Of a stretch of DNA of 64,000 nt, positions 1 to 56,359 are shown in pieces. Every line of letters starts with the position of its first letter. Position 1 is the stretch's first letter. Both the position numbers and the translations under genes were made by a program. This stretch comes from Gammaproteobacteria bacterium (lineage in GTDB: Bacteria; Pseudomonadota; Gammaproteobacteria; Eutrophobiales; Eutrophobiaceae): the NCBI GenBank assembly GCA_965116495.1, contig OZ220696.1:1696001-1760000 (forward strand), written 5' to 3'. The notes beneath the pieces are model-generated. The model ran no database searches, was not told the origin of the DNA, and saw nothing but the letters and a program-made list of their open reading frames with translations.

Positions 1-368
1 TCCGGGTTTGATTGGCGAAAACCCTGAATCACCCGGGGCAACCAATGATAGGTGCCGTAGGCTTTCATGCCGAGGCGAACGGATTCGAAATTTTTTGCTG
101 CCGCAGTGCTGATTTGATATTCGACGTTTTCCAGTTCCTTGAGAATAATCTCCGCCGAAAACAATAATCTCCTGCCGGCGTCCGTCAAAAACAATTTTCT
201 GTTTTTTCTTTCAAATAACAGGGCGTCCAGCCTTCTCTCTGCATCATGAAGCCGATGGCTGAGGGCAGATTGAGTGACACCGAGTTGCCGGGCTGCCTCA
301 GTGACGCTACCGGTATCGCTGATGGCCTTGATCATGCGCAAATGCAGTATTTCCAGCTTCAGATTCAT
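1..368 (-). CDS. LysR-family transcriptional regulator (5' part; runs off window start)
   Basis: Not in the ORF track. Manual translation from ATG at 368: MNLKLEILHLRMIKAISDTGSVTEAARQLGVTQSALSHRLHDAERRLDALLFER.., the classic LysR HTH. Divergent from kynU. Confidence 0.93.
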   Translation of the reverse strand, partial: MNLKLEILHLRMIKAISDTGSVTEAARQLGVTQSALSHRLHDAERRLDALLFERKNRKLFLTDAGRRLLFSAEIILKELENVEYQISTAAAKNFESVRLGMKAYGTYHWLPRVIQGFRQSNP

Positions 369-376
369 AATTAAAC

Positions 377-413
377 ATGAGATTTTCTCATATTTTATAT
401 GAGAATTATGAAT
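377..413. promoter_or_regulatory. Putative LysR binding sites (T-N11-A dyad)
   Basis: ATGAGA-TTT-TCTCAT at 377-391 plus a second half-site ATGAGAATTATGAAT at 399-413, in the lysR/kynU intergenic region. Confidence 0.6.
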
Positions 414-471
414 TTTACTAATTTATCTTCCCTGACTATATTTTGTTCTTGATACCAGAGGCAACTGACAC

Positions 472-1713
472 ATGGCAGATTTAACATTTACAGATATACA
501 AGCGCTTGATGCAAGCGATCCGCTTGCGTATGTGCGAGAACGTTTTGAATTACCCCCTGATACGCGGTATTTCGCCGGTAATTCACTGGGCGCATTGCCG
601 AAAACCATTCCGCAACGCCTGCAGAAACTGGCGCTGGAGGAGTGGGGGCAGAATTTGGTGCGCGGCTGGTTACGGGATGACTGGTTTCAACTCCCGCAAA
701 CCGTGGGCGACAAGCTGGCAGGATTGATCGGCGCTGATAAAGGAGAGGTGGTCGTTTGTGACAGCACCTCGGTCAACCTCTACAAGCTGGCTGTCGCGGC
801 GCTGCACCTGCGCCCGCAGCGCAACAAGATCATCACCACTTCAGATAACTTCCCGACGGGACTGTATATCCTGCAGGGACTGGCAGCAACACTGGATCGG
901 GATATCGAACTCAAAATCCTGGAACCGGACGAATTTCTTGACGCCGTGGACGAGGAGACAGCCTTGGTTACGCTGACTCACGTCGATTACAGAACGGGCT
1001 ATCTCCATGACATGGAGGCAGTCACCCGGCGCGCACACACCAACGGCGCGCTGGCGTTATGGGATTTGTCGCACAGTTGCGGCGCCATGCCGCTTGACCT
1101 TAACGCCTGTAACGTCGATATGGCTATCGGCTGTGGCTACAAATACCTGAATGCGGGGCCCGGCGCGCCGGCATTTTTGTTCGTTAGAAAAGACCTGCAA
1201 GCGCAGGTCAGACAACCGCTGACCGGCTGGATGGGACATGCCGACCCGTTTGCCATGAGTCAGCAATACGAGCCGGCCCCGGATATCCGGCGCCTGCTGT
1301 GCGGTACACACCTGGTGCCCGGCCTGGTGTGCCTGGACGAAGCGATGAACGTCTTTGCGGATATCGATATGCGGGCAGTGGCGCAGAAATCCGCAAAAAT
1401 GGGCAAGTGTTTCATCCGCCTGATGGAACAACGTTGCAACCAATACGGCTTTACGCTGGCCTCACCAGCGGCAAACGAACGGCGCGGCAGCCAGGTCTGT
1501 TTTCGGCATGAACAGGCTTATCCCATCGTACAAGCCTTGATCGAACGTAACGTGATCTGTGATTTCCGCGCGCCGGATATCGTTCGTTTCGGACTGGCAA
1601 CCCTGTATTCGAGATACCGGGATATCTGGGAGGCAGTCGCCGTGATTGTCGCCGTTATGGAAGAACAGGCGTGGCAGCAGGACCAGTTCAGCCAACTGGC
1701 GGCAGTAACATAA
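472..1713 (+). CDS. kynU: Kynureninase (Pseudomonas-type)
   Basis: YFAGNSLG, EVVVCDSTSVNLYK, WDLSHS, GCGYKYLNAGPGAP (PLP Lys), GWMGH and DFRAPDIVRFG motifs. Confidence 0.93.
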   Translation: MADLTFTDIQALDASDPLAYVRERFELPPDTRYFAGNSLGALPKTIPQRLQKLALEEWGQNLVRGWLRDDWFQLPQTVGDKLAGLIGADKGEVVVCDSTSVNLYKLAVAALHLRPQRNKIITTSDNFPTGLYILQGLAATLDRDIELKILEPDEFLDAVDEETALVTLTHVDYRTGYLHDMEAVTRRAHTNGALALWDLSHSCGAMPLDLNACNVDMAIGCGYKYLNAGPGAPAFLFVRKDLQAQVRQPLTGWMGHADPFAMSQQYEPAPDIRRLLCGTHLVPGLVCLDEAMNVFADIDMRAVAQKSAKMGKCFIRLMEQRCNQYGFTLASPAANERRGSQVCFRHEQAYPIVQALIERNVICDFRAPDIVRFGLATLYSRYRDIWEAVAVIVAVMEEQAWQQDQFSQLAAVT

Positions 1714-1754
1714 CATTATATCTTGTCAAATCAGTAATCAAGCCGGGGGCAATC

Positions 1755-4070
1755 ATGAATAAATTCCCAGAGGACATACTTAAACAAGCAGTAATTTTGT
1801 TTTCTTTGTTGGTTTTAACCTCTCAGACAGTCTATTCTCAAAACGTATTGGAGGAGATTGTGGTGACCGCGACAAAACGGGGCCAGGTGAGTATCCAGGA
1901 CACTGCTATCGCTATCCAGGCATTGAGCGAAGAAATGCTGGACAGGCGCGGCGTCGTTGAGTTTGCGGACTGGGCTTATGCTGTCCCGGGACTTGAATTC
2001 AGGGACAACGGGCCAGGTGACAAACAGTATATCATGCGCGGCGTCGCCTCGCGTGCAGCCTCACCCGTCGGCGTGTACTTCAATGAGGCAGTGTTGACCG
2101 CCAATAACACTACCAATGAGGGTGGCGGGCGCAATGCGGAGATCAAGCTGTACGATATTGAACGAATCGAAGTATTGAAGGGGCCGCAGGGAACCCTGTA
2201 CGGCGCCAACTCCATGGCGGGGACGGTAAAAATCATCAGCAAACAACCGCAATTCAACGAGTTTGACTCATACGTTGAGGGGCTGGTTTCCACGACTGAA
2301 AAAGGCAGTGAAAGTTATAACGGCAGCGCCATGCTCAATATGCCGGTGATTGATGATCAGCTAGCCCTGCGTCTGGTGGGCTGGTACGAGAACAATGGGG
2401 GATATATCGACCAGATTCGTCATGGAGTGAAAGATGCCAATGAAGAAGATACCTATGGCGCACGCTTACATTTGCGCTATGAGCCCGCCGATTATCTTCG
2501 CTTCAATGTGATGGCGCTGTACCAGGATACGGAAGTCGATGATGTTTCACGCTACACCAAAGGGGCATCACTGACGCCGCCCGCCCCGCCTCTTGACACC
2601 ATTGCCGGCGGGCCGGAGTTGGCGGCCACCCGCATACCCGGGGGTGACCTGGTGAATCATGACTACGTGTTTCAACCTTGGGAAGACAAGTCTGAAATTT
2701 ACAGTTTTCAGGTGGAATGGGACATCGGACAGGTCACCCTCACAGGCGCCACTAACTGGTACGACCGTGAGAACCTGTATGGTTTCGACTCCGCCTCGAC
2801 CGACTTCACGTTCAGAGGTGTCGGCTATCCTTTCGTGAGCACCGCCTCATTTCCTCAGGAACGCTCGTTATGGAGCAATGAAATTCGTCTGGCCTCGCAA
2901 TTCGACGGCAGGTTCAATTTTGTTCTTGGCGGCTATACACAGGTTGAAGAGGCCGACTATGACGTGGAGATCGTCGTCAGCGGGCCGGAGGGGCGGCGCC
3001 TGCCATTTAACCCCAATACCGAGGGCTACTTCGGACCCGGGACCGGGAAACCCGGCAACGCGGCCTTTGGTCGCACCCTGAGTTACTCCCTGTTTCAATC
3101 TGCGCTGTTCGGCGAGTTGACATTTGACTTTACCGACCGGGTCAGCATTCAGGCGGGCGGCCGTTTTTTCTGGTCCGACCAGGAAATAGAGGAGCAGGCA
3201 ATAAAGCCGATTGGCGCTATCGGCGCCGGTCCGGTACTGAATACAGATTTCACCAGTAACCGTTTCACTCCCAAGGTGTCTTTTTCTTACGACGTCACGG
3301 AGGATGCAATGCTGTATTTCACCTATACCGAAGGCTTTCGGGTAGGGGGAATTAACCAGCGCACGCCGTTCGCGCCCATCCCCCCATCTTATAACCCGGA
3401 TAACCTCAGCAATCTTGAAGCGGGATGGAAAACGACCTGGATGGACCGACGCCTGACCTTGAACGGATCCGTTTACTGGATTAACTGGGAAGATATACAA
3501 ATCGTGCAGGCCGATGCGATTACCGGCATATTCAATTTCGTCAGCAATGGCGGAGAGGCGCGTATCCGCGGCCTGGAAATGCAGGCAGACTTTATCCCGG
3601 TTGCAAACTGGGAATTCTCGGCGGCGTTGGCTTATACCGATGCCAAAATTGTAGAGGATCAACCCCAGATATTTCTGGGACCTCCCGTACCGCTCATCCG
3701 CACGCCGCTAATGAAAGGTGACGATGTCCCCGGCGTGCCCGAATTTTCTGCAACACTGTTCACCCAGTATTCACGTGCACTGGCCGCTTCAGGGCTTGAG
3801 GTGGCCGTCAGCGGAGATATATCATATGTCGGGTCATCCTCGACCGAAGGCAACGCGCGCAATCCCTTCAACCGAGAGACAGGGGACTATGCTGTGGTCA
3901 ATGTTCGCGCTGCCATATTGCGGCAGGATGCCTGGAGCGTAACGGCGTTTCTCGACAATGCGTTTGACAAGAGGGCTATCGTGGACATCATCGCCGATTC
4001 ACAGAACCCGGATGATATTACTACCCTACGCCCGCGCACATTTGGAATCAGAACCAGGCTGGATTTCTGA
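1755..4070 (+). CDS. TonB-dependent receptor
   Basis: Signal peptide from ATG 1755, TonB box EEIVVTATKR, plug motif DIERIEVLKGPQGTLYG, C-terminal Phe (PRTFGIRTRLDF). Confidence 0.93.
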   Translation: MNKFPEDILKQAVILFSLLVLTSQTVYSQNVLEEIVVTATKRGQVSIQDTAIAIQALSEEMLDRRGVVEFADWAYAVPGLEFRDNGPGDKQYIMRGVASRAASPVGVYFNEAVLTANNTTNEGGGRNAEIKLYDIERIEVLKGPQGTLYGANSMAGTVKIISKQPQFNEFDSYVEGLVSTTEKGSESYNGSAMLNMPVIDDQLALRLVGWYENNGGYIDQIRHGVKDANEEDTYGARLHLRYEPADYLRFNVMALYQDTEVDDVSRYTKGASLTPPAPPLDTIAGGPELAATRIPGGDLVNHDYVFQPWEDKSEIYSFQVEWDIGQVTLTGATNWYDRENLYGFDSASTDFTFRGVGYPFVSTASFPQERSLWSNEIRLASQFDGRFNFVLGGYTQVEEADYDVEIVVSGPEGRRLPFNPNTEGYFGPGTGKPGNAAFGRTLSYSLFQSALFGELTFDFTDRVSIQAGGRFFWSDQEIEEQAIKPIGAIGAGPVLNTDFTSNRFTPKVSFSYDVTEDAMLYFTYTEGFRVGGINQRTPFAPIPPSYNPDNLSNLEAGWKTTWMDRRLTLNGSVYWINWEDIQIVQADAITGIFNFVSNGGEARIRGLEMQADFIPVANWEFSAALAYTDAKIVEDQPQIFLGPPVPLIRTPLMKGDDVPGVPEFSATLFTQYSRALAASGLEVAVSGDISYVGSSSTEGNARNPFNRETGDYAVVNVRAAILRQDAWSVTAFLDNAFDKRAIVDIIADSQNPDDITTLRPRTFGIRTRLDF

Positions 4071-4102
4071 GTGAACACCCGTCAGCGCCCTGGCAGTGAG
4101 AG

Positions 4103-4900
4103 ATGCGAATGCCTGTAAAGCGGGTTGGATTAATCGGTTTCGGATTTGTTGGCAGCAGGCTGTATCACAGGTTGACGGAACGCCACCCCGACGTGGAAAT
4201 CGGCTTCGTTTACAACCGCAGCCGCCCGGCGCTGGCAGGACTGCCGCAGGAGATTATTCTTGACGATCCAGACGTTGCAGCGCAACGTGGTTGTGATTTG
4301 ATCGTAGAGATGGCTCACCCGCAAATCACTGAGCAGTATGGCGCCGGCTTTCTCAGGTGCGCGGATTATATGCCGCTTTCCGTGAACGGCCTCGTCGATG
4401 CGACCCTGCTCAAAAAACTGGTCGAAATTGCGGCAGAAAATGGCCGCCGGTTATTCATTCCACATGGCGCGCTGATGGGATGCGACAACCTGATTGAATG
4501 GAAACATATGTGGCAGGAAGTGTCTGTCTCCATGCGCAAGCATCCTGAACACTTGAATATCCAGGATTTACCGGAGCATGTCGGCGCCGGCAGTAAGGAA
4601 ACCGTACTATACGACGGCCCGGTATCAGGCATCGCGCGCAAATTTCCCCGAAACGTCAACGTGATGGTAGCCTGCGCACTCGCGACAATCGGAACAGACC
4701 GATGTCAGGGCCGGTTGATCGCTGATCCTGCAGCGGAACGTGCCGTGCTTGAAGTGGCCGCAACCGGTAAAGACGGCTCCAGACTCTACATGAGAAAAGA
4801 AGCGCCGATGGCGGGCGTCTCCGGCGCAGAGATGTTCGAATCCCAGTATCGTTCGGTGCTGAAGGCGCTGGGGCTGTACCAAACCCTGGATTTTGTATAG
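4103..4900 (+). CDS. Aspartate dehydrogenase-domain protein (ASPDH-like; NadX catalytic motifs absent)
   Basis: GxGxxG Rossmann motif (GFGFVG), DLIVEMAHP, GALMG, RKHP, VLYDGPV...FPRNVNV..ALA, LIADP. Confidence 0.85.
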   Translation: MRMPVKRVGLIGFGFVGSRLYHRLTERHPDVEIGFVYNRSRPALAGLPQEIILDDPDVAAQRGCDLIVEMAHPQITEQYGAGFLRCADYMPLSVNGLVDATLLKKLVEIAAENGRRLFIPHGALMGCDNLIEWKHMWQEVSVSMRKHPEHLNIQDLPEHVGAGSKETVLYDGPVSGIARKFPRNVNVMVACALATIGTDRCQGRLIADPAAERAVLEVAATGKDGSRLYMRKEAPMAGVSGAEMFESQYRSVLKALGLYQTLDFV

Positions 4901-4909
4901 GCAATCCAC

Positions 4910-5842
4910 TTGACATTCCAGTTTCTGACCCAGTACGTTTTTCCTGCCATTATTTTTACCATCATGTTCGGGATGGGACTGGCCCTGCGAACGGATGACT
5001 TTCGACCTGTCCTCTTGCAACCGAAGGCCGCCCTGTTAGGTCTTGCAGGACAGATGGTTCTGCTGCCCTTATGGGGTTTGCTGATAACCCGCCTGTTGCC
5101 GGTGCCGGCGGAAATCGCAGTGGGACTCATGCTTCTTGCTGCCAGCCCGGGCGGGGTCACCTCCAATGCCATCTCGTTTGCCGCAAGGGCTGATATTGCC
5201 TTGTCAATTTGCCTGACCGCGGTTTCGAGTATCCTGGTATCTTTCACCTTGCCGTTGTGGGCTGCCTATGCCATCAGCACGTATATGGACTATGATGCCG
5301 AATTGAGTTTGCCGATCGGAAAAAGTATTTTGCAACTGGCATTGTTGACGATTTTGCCGATGGCGACAGGTATGATAACCCGGCGTTATGCTGGCGAGAG
5401 AGCAATCGGACCGGTCGAATTTTTCCGCAAGTTTTCAATCGTTTTAATTTGTTTTCTTGCGCTCAGCACGGTGTGGTTTAACCTGGATTACTTCAGCAGT
5501 CTGGCAGATTTCCTTACCGTCACGATGTTATGTGTCCTGTTTATGGTCACGATCATGTGTATCGCTTACATGACATCCGTCTACTTCAGGCTTTCCGCCC
5601 GTCAAGGCATCACCATTGTCATTGAGACGGGCATACAGAATTTGGCTATTACGCTGTTGGTAGTCATGACATTGTTGCAACGCCCGGAAATTGGCCGGTT
5701 GCCGCTGGTCTATGGTATGTTAATGATCACAGTGCCCTGGTTTTTTGTGGCATATTTCAAACGTCAACAAAGTTCCTGTGCCAGAGTCAACAGCGACACG
5801 GCTATTGCGGGAGGTTCCGATGAGCAAACTCAACGCCTTTAA
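4910..5842 (+). CDS. Bile acid:sodium symporter (BASS/SBF) family transporter
   Basis: IMFGMGLAL, ASPGGVTSN and IETGIQN motifs; multiple TM helices; TTG start. Confidence 0.9.
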   Translation: MTFQFLTQYVFPAIIFTIMFGMGLALRTDDFRPVLLQPKAALLGLAGQMVLLPLWGLLITRLLPVPAEIAVGLMLLAASPGGVTSNAISFAARADIALSICLTAVSSILVSFTLPLWAAYAISTYMDYDAELSLPIGKSILQLALLTILPMATGMITRRYAGERAIGPVEFFRKFSIVLICFLALSTVWFNLDYFSSLADFLTVTMLCVLFMVTIMCIAYMTSVYFRLSARQGITIVIETGIQNLAITLLVVMTLLQRPEIGRLPLVYGMLMITVPWFFVAYFKRQQSSCARVNSDTAIAGGSDEQTQRL

Positions 5843-5909
5843 CTTCCAGGCCTGGATTGACGAACACAGACACCTGCTCAAACCGCCGGTGGGCTGGGTC
5901 GGATTATGA
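5820..5909 (+). pseudogene. nbaC: Truncated 3-hydroxyanthranilate 3,4-dioxygenase (N-terminal 25 codons only)
   Basis: GGAGG RBS then MSKLNAFNFQAWIDEHRHLLKPPVG-WVGL*; WIDEHxHLLKPPVG is the conserved HAO N-terminus. Stop overlaps the next ATG (ATGA). Confidence 0.85.
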
Positions 5910-6892
5910 ACATAGACATCCACAGCCATTTCTACCCGGACGCGATTCCCGACTTATCCACCCGCTTCGGTGGCGAGTGGCCGGGGTTTCGCCATACCGG
6001 ACCCGGCAAGGGCATGATCACCCTGGGGAACCGGGATTACCGGCCGGTGTACGAGGCGTGCTGGAACCCGGCGCTGCGGCTGGAGGAAATGGACCGTGAC
6101 GGCATAACCATCCAGGTTATGTGCGCCACCCCGTTGCTGTTCGCCTATGAAAAACCCGCGCACCAGGCGCTGGAATGCGCCAGGCTGTTTAACGACATGG
6201 CGCTGGAGTTATGCGGCCACGCGCCCGAGCGGCTGAAAGCGCTGTGCCAGGTGCCGCTGCAGGATACCGACGCATCCTGCCGGGAGGTGAGCCGGGCCGC
6301 GCGGGCCGGACATATCGGAGTACAGATCGGCAACCACGTCGGGCCGCGCAACCTGGATGATGAGGGTCTGATTACCTTCCTGCAACACTGCGCTGCGGAA
6401 GACGTGCCGGTACTGGTGCACCCCTGGGACATGATGGCGCCGGAACGCATGCCCGGATACATGCTGCAATGGCTGGTGGCCATGCCGGCAGAGACGCAGT
6501 TATCCATCCTGTCCCTGATCCTGTCCGGCGCGTTCGAACGCCTGCCACGCAGCCTGCGCATCTGCTTCGCCCACGGCGGCGGCAGCTTCGCCTTCCTGCT
6601 CGGCCGCGTGGACAATGCCTGGCACAACCGCGACCTCGTGCGCAAGGACTGCCCGCACCCGCCGTCACATTACACCGACCGCTTCTACACGGACTCAGCC
6701 GTGTTTGATGAGAACGCCCTGGCGTTACTGGTAAACGTCATGGGAGAGGAACGCGTCATGCTCGGCTCCGACTACCCGTTCCCCCTGGGCGAACAGCGTG
6801 TCGGGTCGCTGATCAGCGGCTCAGGTAAATTCAGTGCGGCGACTAAAACCAGATTGTTGGGGGGTAATGCTGTTAAGTTTTTTGATCTTTGA
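5906..6892 (+). CDS. nbaD: 2-amino-3-carboxymuconate-6-semialdehyde decarboxylase (ACMSD, amidohydrolase)
   Basis: IDIHSH, VLVHPWDMM, WLVAMPAET, CFAHGGGSF, LGSDYPFPLGE motifs; kynurenine context. Confidence 0.9.
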   Translation: MNIDIHSHFYPDAIPDLSTRFGGEWPGFRHTGPGKGMITLGNRDYRPVYEACWNPALRLEEMDRDGITIQVMCATPLLFAYEKPAHQALECARLFNDMALELCGHAPERLKALCQVPLQDTDASCREVSRAARAGHIGVQIGNHVGPRNLDDEGLITFLQHCAAEDVPVLVHPWDMMAPERMPGYMLQWLVAMPAETQLSILSLILSGAFERLPRSLRICFAHGGGSFAFLLGRVDNAWHNRDLVRKDCPHPPSHYTDRFYTDSAVFDENALALLVNVMGEERVMLGSDYPFPLGEQRVGSLISGSGKFSAATKTRLLGGNAVKFFDL

Positions 6893-6898
6893 AAGTGT

Positions 6899-6933
6899 TT
6901 TGCAACCACCAGACGAGTGGTGCTGCAATTTTT
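6899..6933 (+). terminator. Possible intrinsic terminator of the kyn operon
   Basis: TTGCA-ACCAC...GTGGT-GC-TGCAA imperfect stem followed by TTTTT just after nbaD. Confidence 0.35.
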
Positions 6934-7050
6934 CCTTCAGTCTTGCATCCGGAGGATCTTGAAGCGCCAAGCATCCCAGCTCGGCCTTACAGGCTTATGC
7001 GTTAGGCCGAGGGCAGAATTAATCCTGTCCATCCTGCACATCAAGGTTGA

Positions 7051-7805
7051 TCATTTCATCTCCGGAAAAATGCTGTTGAGCCGGTGCACAAAACCAGCAG
7101 GGTCTTCCAGTTGACCGCCTTCGCTTAACAGGACCTGTTCGAACAGGATGTTGGCCCAGTCACTGAAGCGGTTGTCATCCTCCTCGTCCTGTAGCTTGCC
7201 GACAATGGGATGGTCCGGGTTAATCTCCAGGATGGGTTTTGTCGCGGGGAGTTGCTGGCCTGAAGCTTTCAGGATCTGTTCCAAATGGCGGCCCACGGTC
7301 TCCACGGTGTATTCGCTCCTGCCGTCAGAGACCCAGCGCACGCCCTCCTCTCTTGGCAGCCCCGCACAGCGAAGTGACTACCTCCACCTTTTCGGCTACG
7401 ATGAACGAGGAATAAAACCCCACGCCGAACTGGCCTATCAGTTGCGAATCCTTGCCCTGATCACCGGTCAGCGAGGCGAAGAACTGTTTGGTGCCGGATT
7501 TGGCGATTGGTGCCCAGGTTATCCACCACTTCCTGTCTGGACATGCCGATGCCGTTGTCGATAACGGTAACGGTCTTCTGCGTCTTGTTGTATTCCACCC
7601 GGATCTTCAGTTCCGCGTCGTCCTCGAACAGGCTGTCGTCCTGCAAGCCTTCAAAACGCAGCCGGTCGGCGGCGTCGGAGGCGTTCGAGATCAGTTCACG
7701 CAGGAAGATCTCCTGGTTGCTGTACAAGGAGTGGATCATCAGGTCCAGCAACTGCTGGACTTCCGTTTGAAAACCAAGCGCTTCTTTTTGTGCATCTACT
7801 GTCAT
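7051..7805 (-). pseudogene. htpG: Hsp90 chaperone HtpG pseudogene (two +1 frameshifts and a large internal deletion)
   Basis: N-term [34 protein letters not shown]; extra base near 7507 (NLGT/IAKSGT); [10 protein letters not shown]; extra base near 7372; in-frame jump near 7294 from YTVETV to the C-terminal GRHLEQILK..ILEINPDHP..EGGQLEDPAGFV. Confidence 0.93.
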
Positions 7806-7840
7806 GGCATCCCCGTTATAACGAAATGTTCGAATGCCTT

Positions 7841-7869
7841 ATTTGGGGGTTAATGCGCGAAATTTCAAG
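7841..7869 (-). promoter_or_regulatory. Sigma-32 (RpoH) promoter of htpG
   Basis: Minus strand CTTGAAA-N14-CCCCAAAT, close to consensus CTTGAAA-N13/14-CCCCATNT. Confidence 0.8.
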
Positions 7870-7930
7870 GGAATGCACGGCTGCCTTATAATGGTTCCCA
7901 TCGGATAACAGACGTACTTGCGTACAGTTA

Positions 7931-11465: not shown

Positions 11466-11948
11466 TCAGATATACATCATGATACTGTCCAGCGGCGCGT
11501 CTGCGTTAAGCAGGTCCACGCGCTTGAATTTTATTTTCAGCCCCTCCCCTGTCTGAACCAGGCGCCAGGTGACAGTTCCGGCAAAGGTGTCCTGTTTGCG
11601 GTGATGGATCACGGCGATCACGCTCGCAGTGACGGTAATCCCGCCGTCAGGACCTGCCGGTGTACCGGTTTCCAGTTTTGACAGGATGCGCACGGACCGC
11701 ACCTCCTGCTGCATGGACGGCGATAACGGGTTGTGCAGGTTGTACTTGCGCATTTCCATCAGGGCGCGGTTGTCGTAGATCAGGGAATCGTGCTGTTCCG
11801 GGTCGGTCTGGTCCCGTTCCAGCGGCATCCAGTAAAAACCGTCTTCCGTAAACAGGGAGATCCAGGTATCGAGGTCAGCCTTATCCAGGCAGCGCGTCTC
11901 CAGGCGGATCAGGTCTGCGATAGCTTCCTGTAGTGTATCGTCAGCCAT
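11466..11948 (-). CDS. Aromatic ring-hydroxylating dioxygenase beta subunit
   Basis: E..LD....W..LFTEDGFYWMP, SLIYD, KIKFKRVDLLN; directly downstream of the alpha subunit. Confidence 0.9.
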   Translation of the reverse strand: MADDTLQEAIADLIRLETRCLDKADLDTWISLFTEDGFYWMPLERDQTDPEQHDSLIYDNRALMEMRKYNLHNPLSPSMQQEVRSVRILSKLETGTPAGPDGGITVTASVIAVIHHRKQDTFAGTVTWRLVQTGEGLKIKFKRVDLLNADAPLDSIMMYI

Positions 11949-11949
11949 T

Positions 11950-13266
11950 TCAGATCATATATTCGAGCCAGGCCGTGTACTGGTTGCGCAACGCCAGGTC
12001 GCTGGTGCCGGCTGCCCTTAGCCTCCCCCCGTCCCGGACTTCCCTGCCGTAGTGGCGGTGCATGTCTATCCATTCGGCTGCGCCAGCCTCAGCGCTTTCC
12101 TGGATCCGGATATAGCATTCCAGGTCATCCGGGCCGACCATCGAGGCAGGGGAGTTGATCAGGCGCGAGTAGCGCAGGGTGCGTTCCAGCATGTTCGGAG
12201 GCGCCCCTTTCAACCTGAAAGTCCAGGATTCGATGATGGTTTCGTTGACCGACACCGGTATGACGATACGGACGGATTGAATATTGTCACGCACCGTGCA
12301 GGAGGGGTAGAGCAGACCGTTATGGCGGTTGAACGAGAGTATTTCCCGGGTGCGTTCCCTGCCGTAGGCCTGTTCCATCGCCTGCAGGTAATCGGGGTAG
12401 ACCTGGTAGTGGCTGAAAATGCTGGATGTACCGCCCATGTAGGCATGTCCCCGCGGCAGCCCGACAAAACCCATCTTGTCGAAGAAGTCATAGGATCCGC
12501 CAAACGGGGCGATGACTTCCGCTTCCGGTAACGGGTCATGGCCGGACGGAAGCTGTTCCAAGTATTGCCGTACCGCGTCACTGGTGCCGGCATGGGCCAC
12601 CATGGGGTGCATGGCGTCGTGCAGGTTCTCGGTGAAGAACTTCCAGTTGACCGGATGACGAAACCGGTGACAGGTCTTCCCGGTCACCTCAACCTCACCG
12701 GCGGGCGCGCGATCGACCATGTTATCAATGGTGTCGCGCATTTCACCGAGGAAGCTTTCAAGGTCAGGCCCTGTCGCGGAAAGAGAGGCGAAGACAAAAC
12801 CCCGATACTGCCCGGTTCTGGCCACCCCGGGCAGACCGTATTCGGTAGCGCTGCTGTCGAAACCCACGTCCCTGTAGCCGGCCGGGCTCGGCTGCGAGCG
12901 CAATGACCCGTCCGTCCGGTACGTCCAGCCGTGATACGGGCACTTGAATATCCCGTTGCCGGCGCTGCCGTTACGGGCCTGGCAGACCTGTGCGCCGCGA
13001 TGCCCGCAGCGGTTCACCAACACGTTGATATCAGTGCCGTTCATGTCCCTGACCATGATGACCGGCGTAAGCCCGATACTGGTGGTAAGATAATCCCCTG
13101 GGGATTTAACCTGGCTCTCATGGCCGACGTAGATCCATGCCTGCCCCCAGATCCGCTCCATTTCCAGTTTGAAGATATCTTCCCTGACATAGACGTCTCG
13201 GTGTACGCGGGCAGGTTCGACCAGGGAGTTCAGGGCTTTGGGGTTGTCGTAGAGCTCGTGTCTCAT
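11950..13266 (-). CDS. Aromatic ring-hydroxylating (Rieske) dioxygenase alpha subunit
   Basis: Rieske ligands NRCGHRG...CPYHGW; mononuclear Fe site ENLHDAMHPMVAH and GPDD; start placed at ATG 13266. Confidence 0.93.
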   Translation of the reverse strand: MRHELYDNPKALNSLVEPARVHRDVYVREDIFKLEMERIWGQAWIYVGHESQVKSPGDYLTTSIGLTPVIMVRDMNGTDINVLVNRCGHRGAQVCQARNGSAGNGIFKCPYHGWTYRTDGSLRSQPSPAGYRDVGFDSSATEYGLPGVARTGQYRGFVFASLSATGPDLESFLGEMRDTIDNMVDRAPAGEVEVTGKTCHRFRHPVNWKFFTENLHDAMHPMVAHAGTSDAVRQYLEQLPSGHDPLPEAEVIAPFGGSYDFFDKMGFVGLPRGHAYMGGTSSIFSHYQVYPDYLQAMEQAYGRERTREILSFNRHNGLLYPSCTVRDNIQSVRIVIPVSVNETIIESWTFRLKGAPPNMLERTLRYSRLINSPASMVGPDDLECYIRIQESAEAGAAEWIDMHRHYGREVRDGGRLRAAGTSDLALRNQYTAWLEYMI

Positions 13267-13275
13267 TGTCGACAG

Positions 13276-13304
13276 GTTATAAAGATTTATGGATGCTGGG
13301 TCAA
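13276..13304 (-). promoter_or_regulatory. Candidate sigma-70 promoter for the dioxygenase, with -35 inside a REP
   Basis: TTGACC (13304-13299)-N17-TATAAC (13281-13276). Confidence 0.5.
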
Positions 13305-13318
13305 GCCCGGCATGACGA
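13290..13318 (-). repeat. CGTC-type REP-like palindrome
   Basis: Reverse complement TCGTCATGCCGGGCTTGACCCAGCATCCA. Confidence 0.75.
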
Positions 13319-13322
13319 TAAC

Positions 13323-13352
13323 AAAATAAAAAGCCGGACAATGTCCGGCTTT
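13323..13352 (-). terminator. Intrinsic terminator after rplQ
   Basis: AGCCGGAC-N3-GTCCGGCT stem followed by TTTTATTTT on the minus strand. Confidence 0.8.
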
Positions 13353-13384
13353 GAGTTCTTACCACTTTATCAGTTATAGTTATC

Positions 13385-44326: not shown

Positions 44327-45484
44327 GTGAAAAAATTTATCTTCCTACTCTTGTTGGGGCTTGCTTTTCTGTTGTCAGGTTGTGGAAACAACGGTGAGCC
44401 CAGACCCGAACCCTTAATGGATCAGGAGCCTGAGCCCGAGCCTGAGCCTGAGCCTGAGCCGGAACCTGAACCCGAGCCGGAGCCGGAACCCGAGCCGGAA
44501 CCCGAGCCCGAGCCGGAACCTGAACCTGAGCCTGAGCCGGAACCCGAGCCCGAGCCGGAACCTGAACCCATGGGCAGGTTCCCTGACATCGAATGGGCAT
44601 TAGATGCAGATCAAACCCTGACCAGTATCGGCGGTACGGCGCTTGATCTCACGGAGGACCAGGTAAGAAATACTATAACAGGAATAGCAGACAGTACCGA
44701 CACGGACACGTATCTCACCAGCACCCTGGCCCTGCTTGTCACCGGTGATGACGATATCTTTACCACATCCGATTGTGAGGGATCGACATGCAACGCCGGT
44801 CCCGGCGGCATCCAGCAGATCGGCATTGACGATCACGACCTGGTGGGGAATGAGTACCAGGCGGTCATGACCTACGGGGGCATTTCCTTTGCCCAGTCGC
44901 GCAGGGCAGGTGAAGAAATTCCTCTCGTCGGTACCAGTGATACAACCGAGGTTCTCACTTACGGCGGCTGGCTTGATCACCACTACTTCGGCGTACAGGC
45001 GACGTTCGACGGGAACACTGAAGACCCCAGCCAGGTAGCCATATTCAGTTTTACGTTCGGTAACGCTAGCGGAACCAACCCTGATGACTCCGGCAGCGGC
45101 ACCTGGAACGGCGTTGCAATCGGGGTTAACCTGCTTGAACGGTTCGAGGACCGCAGCCTGCTTACGGCCGATGTCTCCATCACGGTTGCCGATTTCCTTA
45201 ACCCGACGGTGGATGTCCTGTTCGACAATATCAAAGACCTCAGGACGGGCGAGGACCTGGTCGTAAGCGGTGTTACCGTAGAATCCGTAGATTGGGCGGG
45301 TCTTGACCTGACCGATGGTTCGTTTGCAGAAGAACTGGGAGATGTTGAAGATCCACTTAACCTGTCCCAGCCACGTAAACGGATAGCAGCCCACTTCTAC
45401 GGGCCAGGGCACGAGGAAGTCGGTGGTATCTTCGAATACTTCTCGGTAGTCGGCTCGTTCGGCGCCAAGCGCGATGATCAATAA
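44327..45484 (+). CDS. Surface lipoprotein with (EP)24 linker and C-terminal TbpB-like beta-barrel (Slam substrate)
   Basis: Lipobox LLSG-C; Glu-Pro repeat; C-terminal [21 protein letters not shown] signature. Confidence 0.85.
44426..44569 (+). repeat. Coding hexanucleotide tandem repeat GARCCN x24 (Glu-Pro)
   Basis: 144 bp of GAG/GAA + CCN units. Confidence 0.95.
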
Positions 45485-55522: not shown

Positions 55523-56359
55523 ATGGCCGCGGCCCGGGCGTTCGACCAGGCCGATGAACTGGCCGCGTTCCGCACCGAATCCACCTTTCCGACCAATATC
55601 GAGGGTGAACCATTACTGTACTTCGCCGGCCACTCGCTGGGCCTCATGCCCAACCGCGCCCGCGAGGCGCTGAATGCCGAGTGCGACGCCTGGGGCAAAT
55701 ACGCCGTCAAAGGGCACTTTGAATCCGAACGACCCTGGGTACGCTGTCACACCTATGTCGCGGACAGCCTGGCGCGCCTCAGCGGCGCCAAACCGTCCGA
55801 AGTGGTGGCGATGAATACGCTCACCGTCAACCTGCACCTGATGCTGGTCAGTTTTTACCGTCCGACGAAAACCCGTTACAAGATCATCATCGAAAAAAAC
55901 GCTTTCCCGTCGGACCAGTACGCGGTCGATTCACAGGCCCGTTTTCACGGGTTTTACCCTGATGACGCCATTGTCGAACTTGAGCCGAAACCGGGACAAC
56001 CGGCCATAGCCGATGATGACGTCCTGGAACTGTTCGATGCGGCTACCATGCCCAGGGTGCGCGCGAAGAGCGAACAACTGACTTCGTACCTGGAATGGCT
56101 TTTGCTGGAGAACGTCAGCGACTTCGTAGAGGTGCTGACGCCCCCACACACACTGGCAAAACAGACCCGCGGCTGTACCTTGTCGCTACGCTTCAAGAAA
56201 GACCCCAGGGGGATGTTGAAAGTATTATCTGACCGGGGCGCAGTCACGGATTTCAGGGAGCCGGATATCATCCGCGTCGCGCCCATCCCCCTGTATAACA
56301 GCTTTGAGGATGTGTACCGATTCAGTGAGATTGTGGCGGAGTTCTGCAGTAACGGATAA
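55523..56359 (+). pseudogene. kynU: Second kynureninase with in-frame internal deletion of the PLP-lysine region
   Basis: YFAGHSLGLMP, EVVAMNTLTVNLHLMLVSFYRP, AFPSDQY and C-terminal DFREPDIIRVAPIPLYN present; DLAH and YKY motifs absent; only 278 aa. Confidence 0.85.

Follow-up and report, generated by a model that had tools for sequence, protein, structure and literature searches.

The window analysed here is a stretch of 64,000 nucleotides from the genome of a Gammaproteobacteria bacterium (genome G000). Near its left end lies a compact run of genes on one strand: a kynureninase gene (kynU), a gene for a TonB-dependent receptor, ORF 4103-4900, a BASS transporter gene, a 29-codon relic of an HAO gene and an ACMSD gene (Table 1). 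The run has gaps of 41, 32 and 9 nucleotides and two overlaps, one of them between the stop codon of the HAO relic and the start of the ACMSD gene, a spacing that suggests co-transcription from kynU to ACMSD; a scan for promoters and terminators gave counts at chance level (5 versus 4.9; 10 versus 7.0). An earlier note on this DNA had described an operon in which ORF 4103-4900 is found together with the kynureninase, HAO relic and ACMSD genes, and these do lie on the same strand, but the two transporter genes that are its direct neighbours had been omitted. The same note had seen no nadA or nadC in the window, in agreement with their positions at 2.90 and 1.15 Mb of the genome; nadB is also outside the window, at 0.85 Mb.

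Table 1. Annotated features at the left end of the window (coordinates are window positions)
Feature	Coordinates	Strand	Evidence and remarks
Divergent LysR regulator of the cassette, 5' part	1..368	-	Pfam HTH_1; 297 aa; runs off the window
Kynureninase, bacterial kynurenine-preferring type (Trp/Thr signature)	472..1713	+	TIGR01814 286.6, above cut-off 246.4; 1qz9 E 3e-123
TonB-dependent outer-membrane receptor, likely importer	1755..4070	+	Pfam PF00593, PF07715
ASPDH-sister oxidoreductase	4103..4900	+	Rossmann domain and Asp_DH_C; A214/L216 at the AMR/NadX His positions; K232, W137, GVSGxEM with E243
BASS/SBF sodium symporter, likely inner-membrane importer	4910..5842	+	Pfam PF01758
HAO relic, 29 codons	5820..5909	+	In-frame loss of ~453 nt between short imperfect direct repeats
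ACMSD, second genome copy	5906..6892	+	Pfam Amidohydro_2; 85% to native copy at 4.074 Mb
htpG relic	7051..7805	-	Internal loss of ~1.1 kb; passenger near right end of transferred block

A horizontally gained cassette

These genes belong to a block (genome 1,695,243-1,703,912; window 1-7912, its end lying at about 7912) that is 97-99% identical to locus L001, whereas identity to L001 is 75-82% for the native prmB-HAO-ACMSD-htpG-mutS region of the host at 4.07 Mb, a region that the block duplicates with a likeness of about 80%. These identities mark the block as recently gained by horizontal transfer. Its copies of prmB, HAO and htpG are cut; kynU, the receptor gene, the ASPDH-sister gene, the BASS gene and ACMSD are whole. 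Both the HAO and the htpG deletion junctions are present in runs X1, X2 and X5 from two studies, one of which may be the source of the window. Since a horizontally gained block carries these cut passengers, the HAO-ACMSD adjacency largely reflects the site at which a LysR-kynU-receptor-gene-BASS cassette was inserted; in loci L001 and L003 this cassette is followed by HAO-ACMSD. The receptor gene holds the same position in L001-L003 and L013, as does the LysR gene (11476-12369 in L012), and the BASS gene lies directly downstream of the homologue in L001-L003, L013 and Niveispirillum; in the latter, a 27%-identical receptor is encoded directly upstream of it.

Within the host genus, G000 and 3 of 22 relatives carry the gene, and a kynureninase of the ORF 472-1713 type, the only intact kynureninase that we found in G000, is intact in exactly these genomes, with a relic in G408. 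HAO and ACMSD are both present in 19 of the 22 relatives, 16 of which lack the gene, and in G415 the cassette is on a different contig from HAO-ACMSD. The G408 locus (L193, 9431-11395) holds a LysR gene, the kynU relic (residues 1-45 and 355-413) and an adjacent HAO gene, and is a decayed form of the cassette without receptor, ASPDH-like or BASS gene. A native kynureninase gene of the eukaryote (3-hydroxykynurenine) type is also found in the window (55523-56359, + strand), but ~140 of its residues, those of the PLP lysine region among them, have been lost in frame; this type is whole in most relatives of the genus.

Two further features of the window were recorded. A pair of genes for the alpha and beta subunits of a Rieske ring-hydroxylating dioxygenase (11466-13365, - strand), below all named cut-offs, lies 4.5 kb from the transferred block; an aromatic acid, for instance anthranilate, could be the substrate. 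At 44327-45484 (+ strand), a lipoprotein-like ORF carries a long (PE)n repeat.

Fold, family and active site of the ORF 4103-4900 protein

ORF 4103-4900 encodes 265 residues, and a second Met codon at 4109 corresponds to the start used by close database homologues of 263 residues. Each of the motifs quoted in the earlier note is present in its translation: FVYNR (35-39), VEMAHP (68-73), GALMG (122-126), KHP (146-148), VLYDGPV..PRN (168-184), LIADP-AAERAVLEV (205-218) and AGVSG (237-241). The aspartate-dehydrogenase fold named in that note was also recovered, since the Pfam domains Asp_DH_C (70.5 bits) and NAD_binding_3 (47.9 bits) were both above cut-off and since the best structural matches of an AlphaFold2 model (pLDDT 90.9, from a 46-sequence alignment) were 2dc1, 1h2h and 1j5p, all solved aspartate dehydrogenases (TM 0.74-0.77). 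An ESM Atlas search returned Asp_DH_C clusters only, and G000 has no other Asp_DH_C gene.

Considering this fold, one reading is that the protein is a divergent L-aspartate dehydrogenase (NadX, EC 1.4.1.21) for NAD synthesis, as its homologues are often labelled in the source databases. It shares with the NadX references (TM1643 1j5p/1h2h, A. fulgidus 2dc1, TIGR03855; for assayed enzymes, see the accessible part of PMC5554190) the Rossmann and Asp_DH_C domains and the conserved residues E69, S93, G122-A123, K146, P182, N184 and N186. However, all eight NCBIfam aspartate dehydrogenase models matched it below their cut-offs (best, 102.7 versus 184; TIGR03855, 96.4 versus 206.55), it lacks both the N-x-H motif and the K/R-T-S loop of NadX, no nadA or nadC lies close to the gene, and the genome uses nadB. 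A separate NadX-type gene also lies near the homologue of Niveispirillum, and a tree in which the protein groups with NadX was rejected (AU p=8e-5, 34 rows), so that we regard this reading as extremely unlikely.

A word search yielded 539 relatives, with identities of 49-98% among the 120 matches listed, and the more distant relatives in a profile library include proteins named from bat, shrew, fish, nematode and choanoflagellate. The protein is 32% identical to shrew ASPDH and scores 169 bits against an animal profile versus 124 bits against a NadX profile. In a quick tree of 117 rows, the ORF 4103-4900 clade, the animal ASPDH/2-aminomuconate reductase (AMR) clade and NadX had SH-aLRT values of 99, 100 and 99, and the first two fell on one side of a branch with a value of 99, as sisters at only 80. 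In a careful tree rooted on NadX, built from 34 hand-chosen rows of 107 representatives with four long-branch rows excluded, the ORF 4103-4900 clade was sister to the AMR clade (98/94), the two being separate with 100% bootstrap each; grouping with the 'other' prokaryotic rows was only barely rejected in this set (AU p=0.048). The tree that the earlier note had suggested therefore bears out its view of an ASPDH-like protein that is not NadX, as do the AU test and the profile scores.

A scan of genome contigs with this single protein found three close loci, and 400 other genomes of the phylum contained no clade member (best other score 117 bits, versus 424). This subfamily is real, rare and mis-annotated, and our search, which did not extend to subscription journals, found no literature on it or on a 'kynurenine dehydrogenase'.

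Three more distant proteins or groups were noted on the way. On a plasmid of Halorussus lipolyticus, a 38%-identical homologue (L182, 9983-10768) is the last gene of a sugar-type ABC operon, with no annotated kynurenine gene within 10 kb. A further prokaryotic group (P0167, P0182, P0218 and relatives; 21 rows) is placed between NadX and the AMR side and has a G-x-T-G-A-Y-T motif, His at 188 and mostly His at 216. On a Neorhizobium plasmid, a gene annotated nadX (H9; L183, 10001-10768; 29% identity, outside the tree set) lies in a hydantoinase/DapA-like/ETF catabolic cluster.

At the active site, N187-x-H189 of 2dc1 aligns with A214-V-L216, as the earlier note had read from the AAERAVLEV stretch, and H233 of shrew ASPDH, which corresponds to human His223 by length offset, aligns with A214. 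Among 121 close homologues, 112 have Ala and 9 have Gly at position 214, and His is never found at 214 or 216; 1 of 22 distant members of the wider clade has His at 214. By comparison, the control sets have His at 214 in 26/26 animal ASPDH proteins, and Asn at 214 (26/26) with His at 216 (24/26) in NadX-type proteins. W137, K232 and E243 are invariant (121/121), N38 and R39 are kept in 119/121 and 120/121, and K146, N184 and N186 are common to the clade and to most NadX and AMR proteins. H72-P73, M188, a basic residue at 232 and V-S/T-G at 239-241 are shared with AMR and not with NadX, these being markers picked from this same alignment; an amide at 234, as in AMR and not NadX, is found in most of the clade, with Ala in the ORF 4103-4900 protein itself. 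The orientation in which K232 would face was deduced from the hairpin pattern of the model. Since the clade lacks the defining residue of both NadX and AMR, it is, on sequence grounds, a third subfamily beside them.

According to the accessible part of a June 2026 preprint (bioRxiv 10.64898/2026.06.05.730449), human ASPDH does not oxidise aspartate; it is an NAD(P)H-dependent reductase of 2-aminomuconate that works about two-fold faster with NADPH, a hydride being transferred to C2 and C5 being protonated. From a model and an alignment, proton transfer is assigned there to His223, which precedes the NadX His by two residues. The proposal on 2-aminomuconate that the earlier note had mentioned is thus correct for human ASPDH. 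The ORF 4103-4900 clade resembles animal ASPDH/AMR in its fold, its sister position, the residues listed above including N38-R39 and its link to kynurenine metabolism. It differs from it by its lack of His223 (A214 in the ORF 4103-4900 protein), by the invariant residues W137 and E243, which are Leu and Ala in AMR, by L-S-V instead of G-S-P at 92-94 (in the ORF 4103-4900 protein), by its lower score against the animal profile and by its gene neighbours, which are kynureninase and importers rather than HAO and ACMSD.

True His-bearing proteins do exist in bacteria: all six that we aligned (P0168, P0390, P0397, P0413, P0415 and P0436, from two species of Candidatus Uabimicrobium, from Myxococcota and from Deltaproteobacteria) keep the AMR His and also have R232. 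The one placed in the tree, P0168 (WP_372368834.1), belongs there to the AMR clade, and scores of 299-309 bits against the animal profile were obtained for the two Uabimicrobium proteins; a plasmid search for this type gave no match. On sequence evidence, they are better candidates for the proposed bacterial 2-aminomuconate reductase than the ORF 4103-4900 protein. Their place inside the AMR clade is at odds with the clear separation of prokaryotic and eukaryotic sequences described in the accessible part of the preprint (bioRxiv 10.64898/2026.06.05.730449), the tree of which may already include such prokaryotic sequences.

Kynureninase and importers as recurrent neighbours

The neighbourhood of the gene was compared across 83 loci, namely 3 from genomes and the best 80 of 314 from metagenomes, many of which are short and several near-identical and so not independent; co-occurrence at the level of genomes was covered for the host genus and for family f55. 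In this set (best 80 of 314 metagenome loci included), a kynureninase gene adjoins the gene in 27/83 loci, giving the linkage to kynurenine genes for which the earlier note had proposed to look; outside the host genus the count is 23/79, all within 257 bp. Where 3 kb or more of sequence flanks the gene on both sides, as in 22 of these loci, a kynureninase is encoded in 12 and HAO in 2. Over all 83 (again with the best 80 of 314), HAO is nearby in 2 and a close ACMSD likewise in 2, these loci all belonging to the host genus, and one further ACMSD-like gene (27%) lies 3.3 kb from a homologue. The gene is therefore tied to kynurenine metabolism, as had been claimed, but its conserved neighbour is kynureninase and not HAO or ACMSD.

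Importers recur as well: still among the 83 loci (best 80 of 314), a TrpX-like ABC binding protein is encoded in 27, a TctC protein directly upstream in 14 and a BASS transporter in 4, the TctC-linked subgroup being mostly without a kynureninase nearby. The recurring layouts are kynU-TBDR-gene-BASS, kynU and the gene divergent with an ABC system after the gene, and ABC-gene-kynU-MarR. The partner kynureninases come from at least four separate lineages, and 20/20 of those aligned carry the Trp/Thr signature, which the accessible part of PMC11329768 links to a preference for kynurenine. Around control kynureninase genes (1.5 kb flanks), the gene was found in 0/30 loci. A specialised kynureninase clade as the partner was considered and ruled out, the partners being scattered and canonical.

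In family f55, the gene is present in 8 of 351 genomes, with a kynureninase gene divergently adjacent in all eight. A TDO match was found in seven of these carriers, so that import is not obligatory in this family. All 12 carrier genomes checked have an HAO gene at some place, as does the Niveispirillum cluster, compared with 69/351 genomes of f55; since the f55 carriers come from three HAO-rich genera, this co-presence reflects few independent events. The eight HAO regions of the f55 carriers contain no close ACMSD, with matches of 23-26% only, and one query for 2-aminomuconate deaminase found none in the eight genomes. In the HAO regions of L202-L207 and L209, HAO is paired with a DHDPS-family protein instead of ACMSD, often also with a PRK06126-type FAD monooxygenase, which may be another ring-cleavage route.

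The complete plasmid record NZ_CP025613.1 of Niveispirillum cyanobacteriorum TH16 carries a homologue in the order receptor-gene-BASS, with kynU 8 kb further on, followed by genes for a semialdehyde dehydrogenase, a deaminase, HAO and ACMSD, and with the separate NadX-type gene in between; as the record is unannotated, these genes were identified by similarity. After the BASS gene, this plasmid also encodes a secreted-looking protein of 574 residues without Pfam match (L211, 1859-3580).

These data bear on the function suggested by the earlier note, namely that the protein is a bacterial 2-aminomuconate reductase, which would use NAD(P)H to reduce 2-aminomuconate to aminohexenedioate with K232 or E243 standing in for the His. 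The sister position and shared residues, HAO in all carrier genomes checked, the deaminase not found in the f55 carriers with that one query, and HAO-ACMSD following the cassette in L001 and L003 all speak for it. Against it, the reductase His is absent from all close homologues and from 21 of the 22 distant clade members, the real His-bearing type occurs in other bacteria, and HAO and ACMSD are rarely nearby, as described above, the f55 HAO regions and the separate contigs of G415 pointing the same way. A true 2-aminomuconate deaminase is moreover encoded in G000 (6izh, E 4e-50), in 3/3 carriers of the host genus and in the Niveispirillum cluster; the accessible part of the preprint (bioRxiv 10.64898/2026.06.05.730449) describes reductase and deaminase as mutually exclusive among eukaryotes. 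We consider this reading rather unlikely, and the further claim of a lower-pathway variant distinct from the deaminase route is not supported, as the same genomes encode the deaminase, which in Niveispirillum even belongs to the cluster itself.

A predicted reaction upstream of kynureninase

The bacterial 2-aminomuconate deaminase route is known by the gene names nbaCDEF. Like organisms that use kynU and this route (AmnE structure 6izh), G000 has a kynureninase, an intact HAO elsewhere in the genome, ACMSD, a semialdehyde dehydrogenase (above cut-off, in a meta-cleavage cluster) and the deaminase. It differs by the extra oxidoreductase and importers beside kynU, an arrangement not seen at the control kynU loci, and by its lack of matches for three other enzymes: TDO was not found in G000, and one of 24 relatives has a match, with a stop inside; three KMO-like queries, one verified by structure search, had no match in G000; IDO was not found either, in a search that is weak as it had no match in any control genome. 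Since TDO and KMO were not found in G000 and the one TDO among the relatives is broken, the substrate would come from outside. Given the missing His and the frequent kynureninase and importer neighbours, the enzyme likely makes kynurenine from a scavenged product of tryptophan breakdown instead of catalysing a late step of the pathway.

Our favoured reading, which we hold tentatively, is that the protein is an NAD(P)H-dependent C2 imino-acid reductase that would feed kynureninase from an imported kynurenine-skeleton compound, with kynurenate and xanthurenate as lead candidates. Its observed base is the fold, the clade, the loss of both catalytic His residues, the repeated pairing with kynureninase and with importers of several families, and the lack of matches for TDO, IDO and KMO in the host genome. 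The importers would bring in the kynurenine-skeleton compound, and hydride transfer to C2 of the imported imino or enamino acid would yield an amino acid of the L-kynurenine type, on which the kynureninase encoded nearby could act. The sister enzyme AMR has been shown to transfer a hydride to C2, which we count in favour of this reading. As kynurenine corresponds to aspartate with its beta-carboxylate replaced by an aryl ketone, the lost N-x-H and NPxTS motifs and the small residues at 214/216 would fit a bulky side chain; K232 and E243 would take over from the His the role of proton donor or charge partner, and N38-R39 would point to the use of NADP(H) in the reductive direction. DpkA, DauB and mu-crystallin are imino-acid reductases with folds other than that of aspartate dehydrogenase, and we know of no kynurenine-type substrate for them. 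They offer a works-like analogy, by description only, in which a C2 imine is converted with NAD(P)H into the L-amino acid that the next enzyme can use.

The lead substrate would be kynurenate (or xanthurenate), which with ammonia would undergo the reverse of kynurenate formation, pulled by kynureninase; an imino-kynurenine from another source is the alternative substrate. Since kynurenate formation is described as effectively irreversible in the accessible part of PMC11354673, this lead substrate is chemically demanding. The specific form of the proposal, a kynurenate/xanthurenate reductive aminase that uses ammonia and NADPH to reopen the quinoline ring and yields L-(3-hydroxy)kynurenine for removal by the coupled kynureninase, is put forward as an unlikely but definite prediction. 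Against the C2-reductase reading as a whole, 10 of the 22 long loci (of the 83, best 80 of 314 included) and most TctC-linked loci have no kynureninase nearby. HAO in 12/12 carriers fits a 3-hydroxy substrate and fits a 2-aminomuconate reductase too, and the transporter families point both ways, to amino-acid binders and to carboxylate binders.

The same kynureninase linkage could also be explained by catalysis in the opposite direction, with an NAD(P)+-dependent dehydrogenase that would convert L-kynurenine or kynurenine yellow via an imine to kynurenate, as a branch or clean-up reaction beside kynureninase. The keto/imino product cyclises spontaneously and favourably (accessible part of PMC11354673), and its capture by the aryl amine would make the His unnecessary. 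Such an enzyme would, however, compete with a co-regulated kynureninase for one substrate, no kynurenate-degrading oxygenase recurs in the minimal clusters, and the nearly invariant N38-R39 resembles the NADPH-preferring human enzyme, leaving this oxidative reaction quite improbable. A further possibility is that the enzyme resembles alanine dehydrogenase and would remove the L-alanine that kynureninase sets free, in line with the adjoining genes and with the changed aspartate-specificity residues of NadX. We judge it very unlikely, as G000 already encodes an alanine dehydrogenase of the canonical type (519 bits, cut-off 391.85), as positions 214 and 216 became smaller and not larger, and as two-gene TctC-gene units without kynureninase suggest an imported substrate. 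The remaining probability falls to another imported imino acid as substrate.

Altogether, the gene encodes a known fold in a new subfamily, possibly with a new reaction. As its clade is annotated as aspartate dehydrogenase, it would be mis-scored as NAD synthesis. A sister clade with neither catalytic His, together with bacterial proteins inside the AMR clade, makes the route from NadX to ASPDH traceable in bacteria, and if the enzyme is the proposed kynurenate/xanthurenate reductive aminase, the clade would be an intermediate stage between aspartate dehydrogenase and the animal 2-aminomuconate reductase. With an importer and two enzymes, bacteria could then reverse, with no need of oxygen, a step regarded as irreversible and final. 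From the pairing with kynureninase and importers, we predict a not yet described reaction through which compounds enter kynurenine catabolism, possibly the neuroactive kynurenate or xanthurenate.
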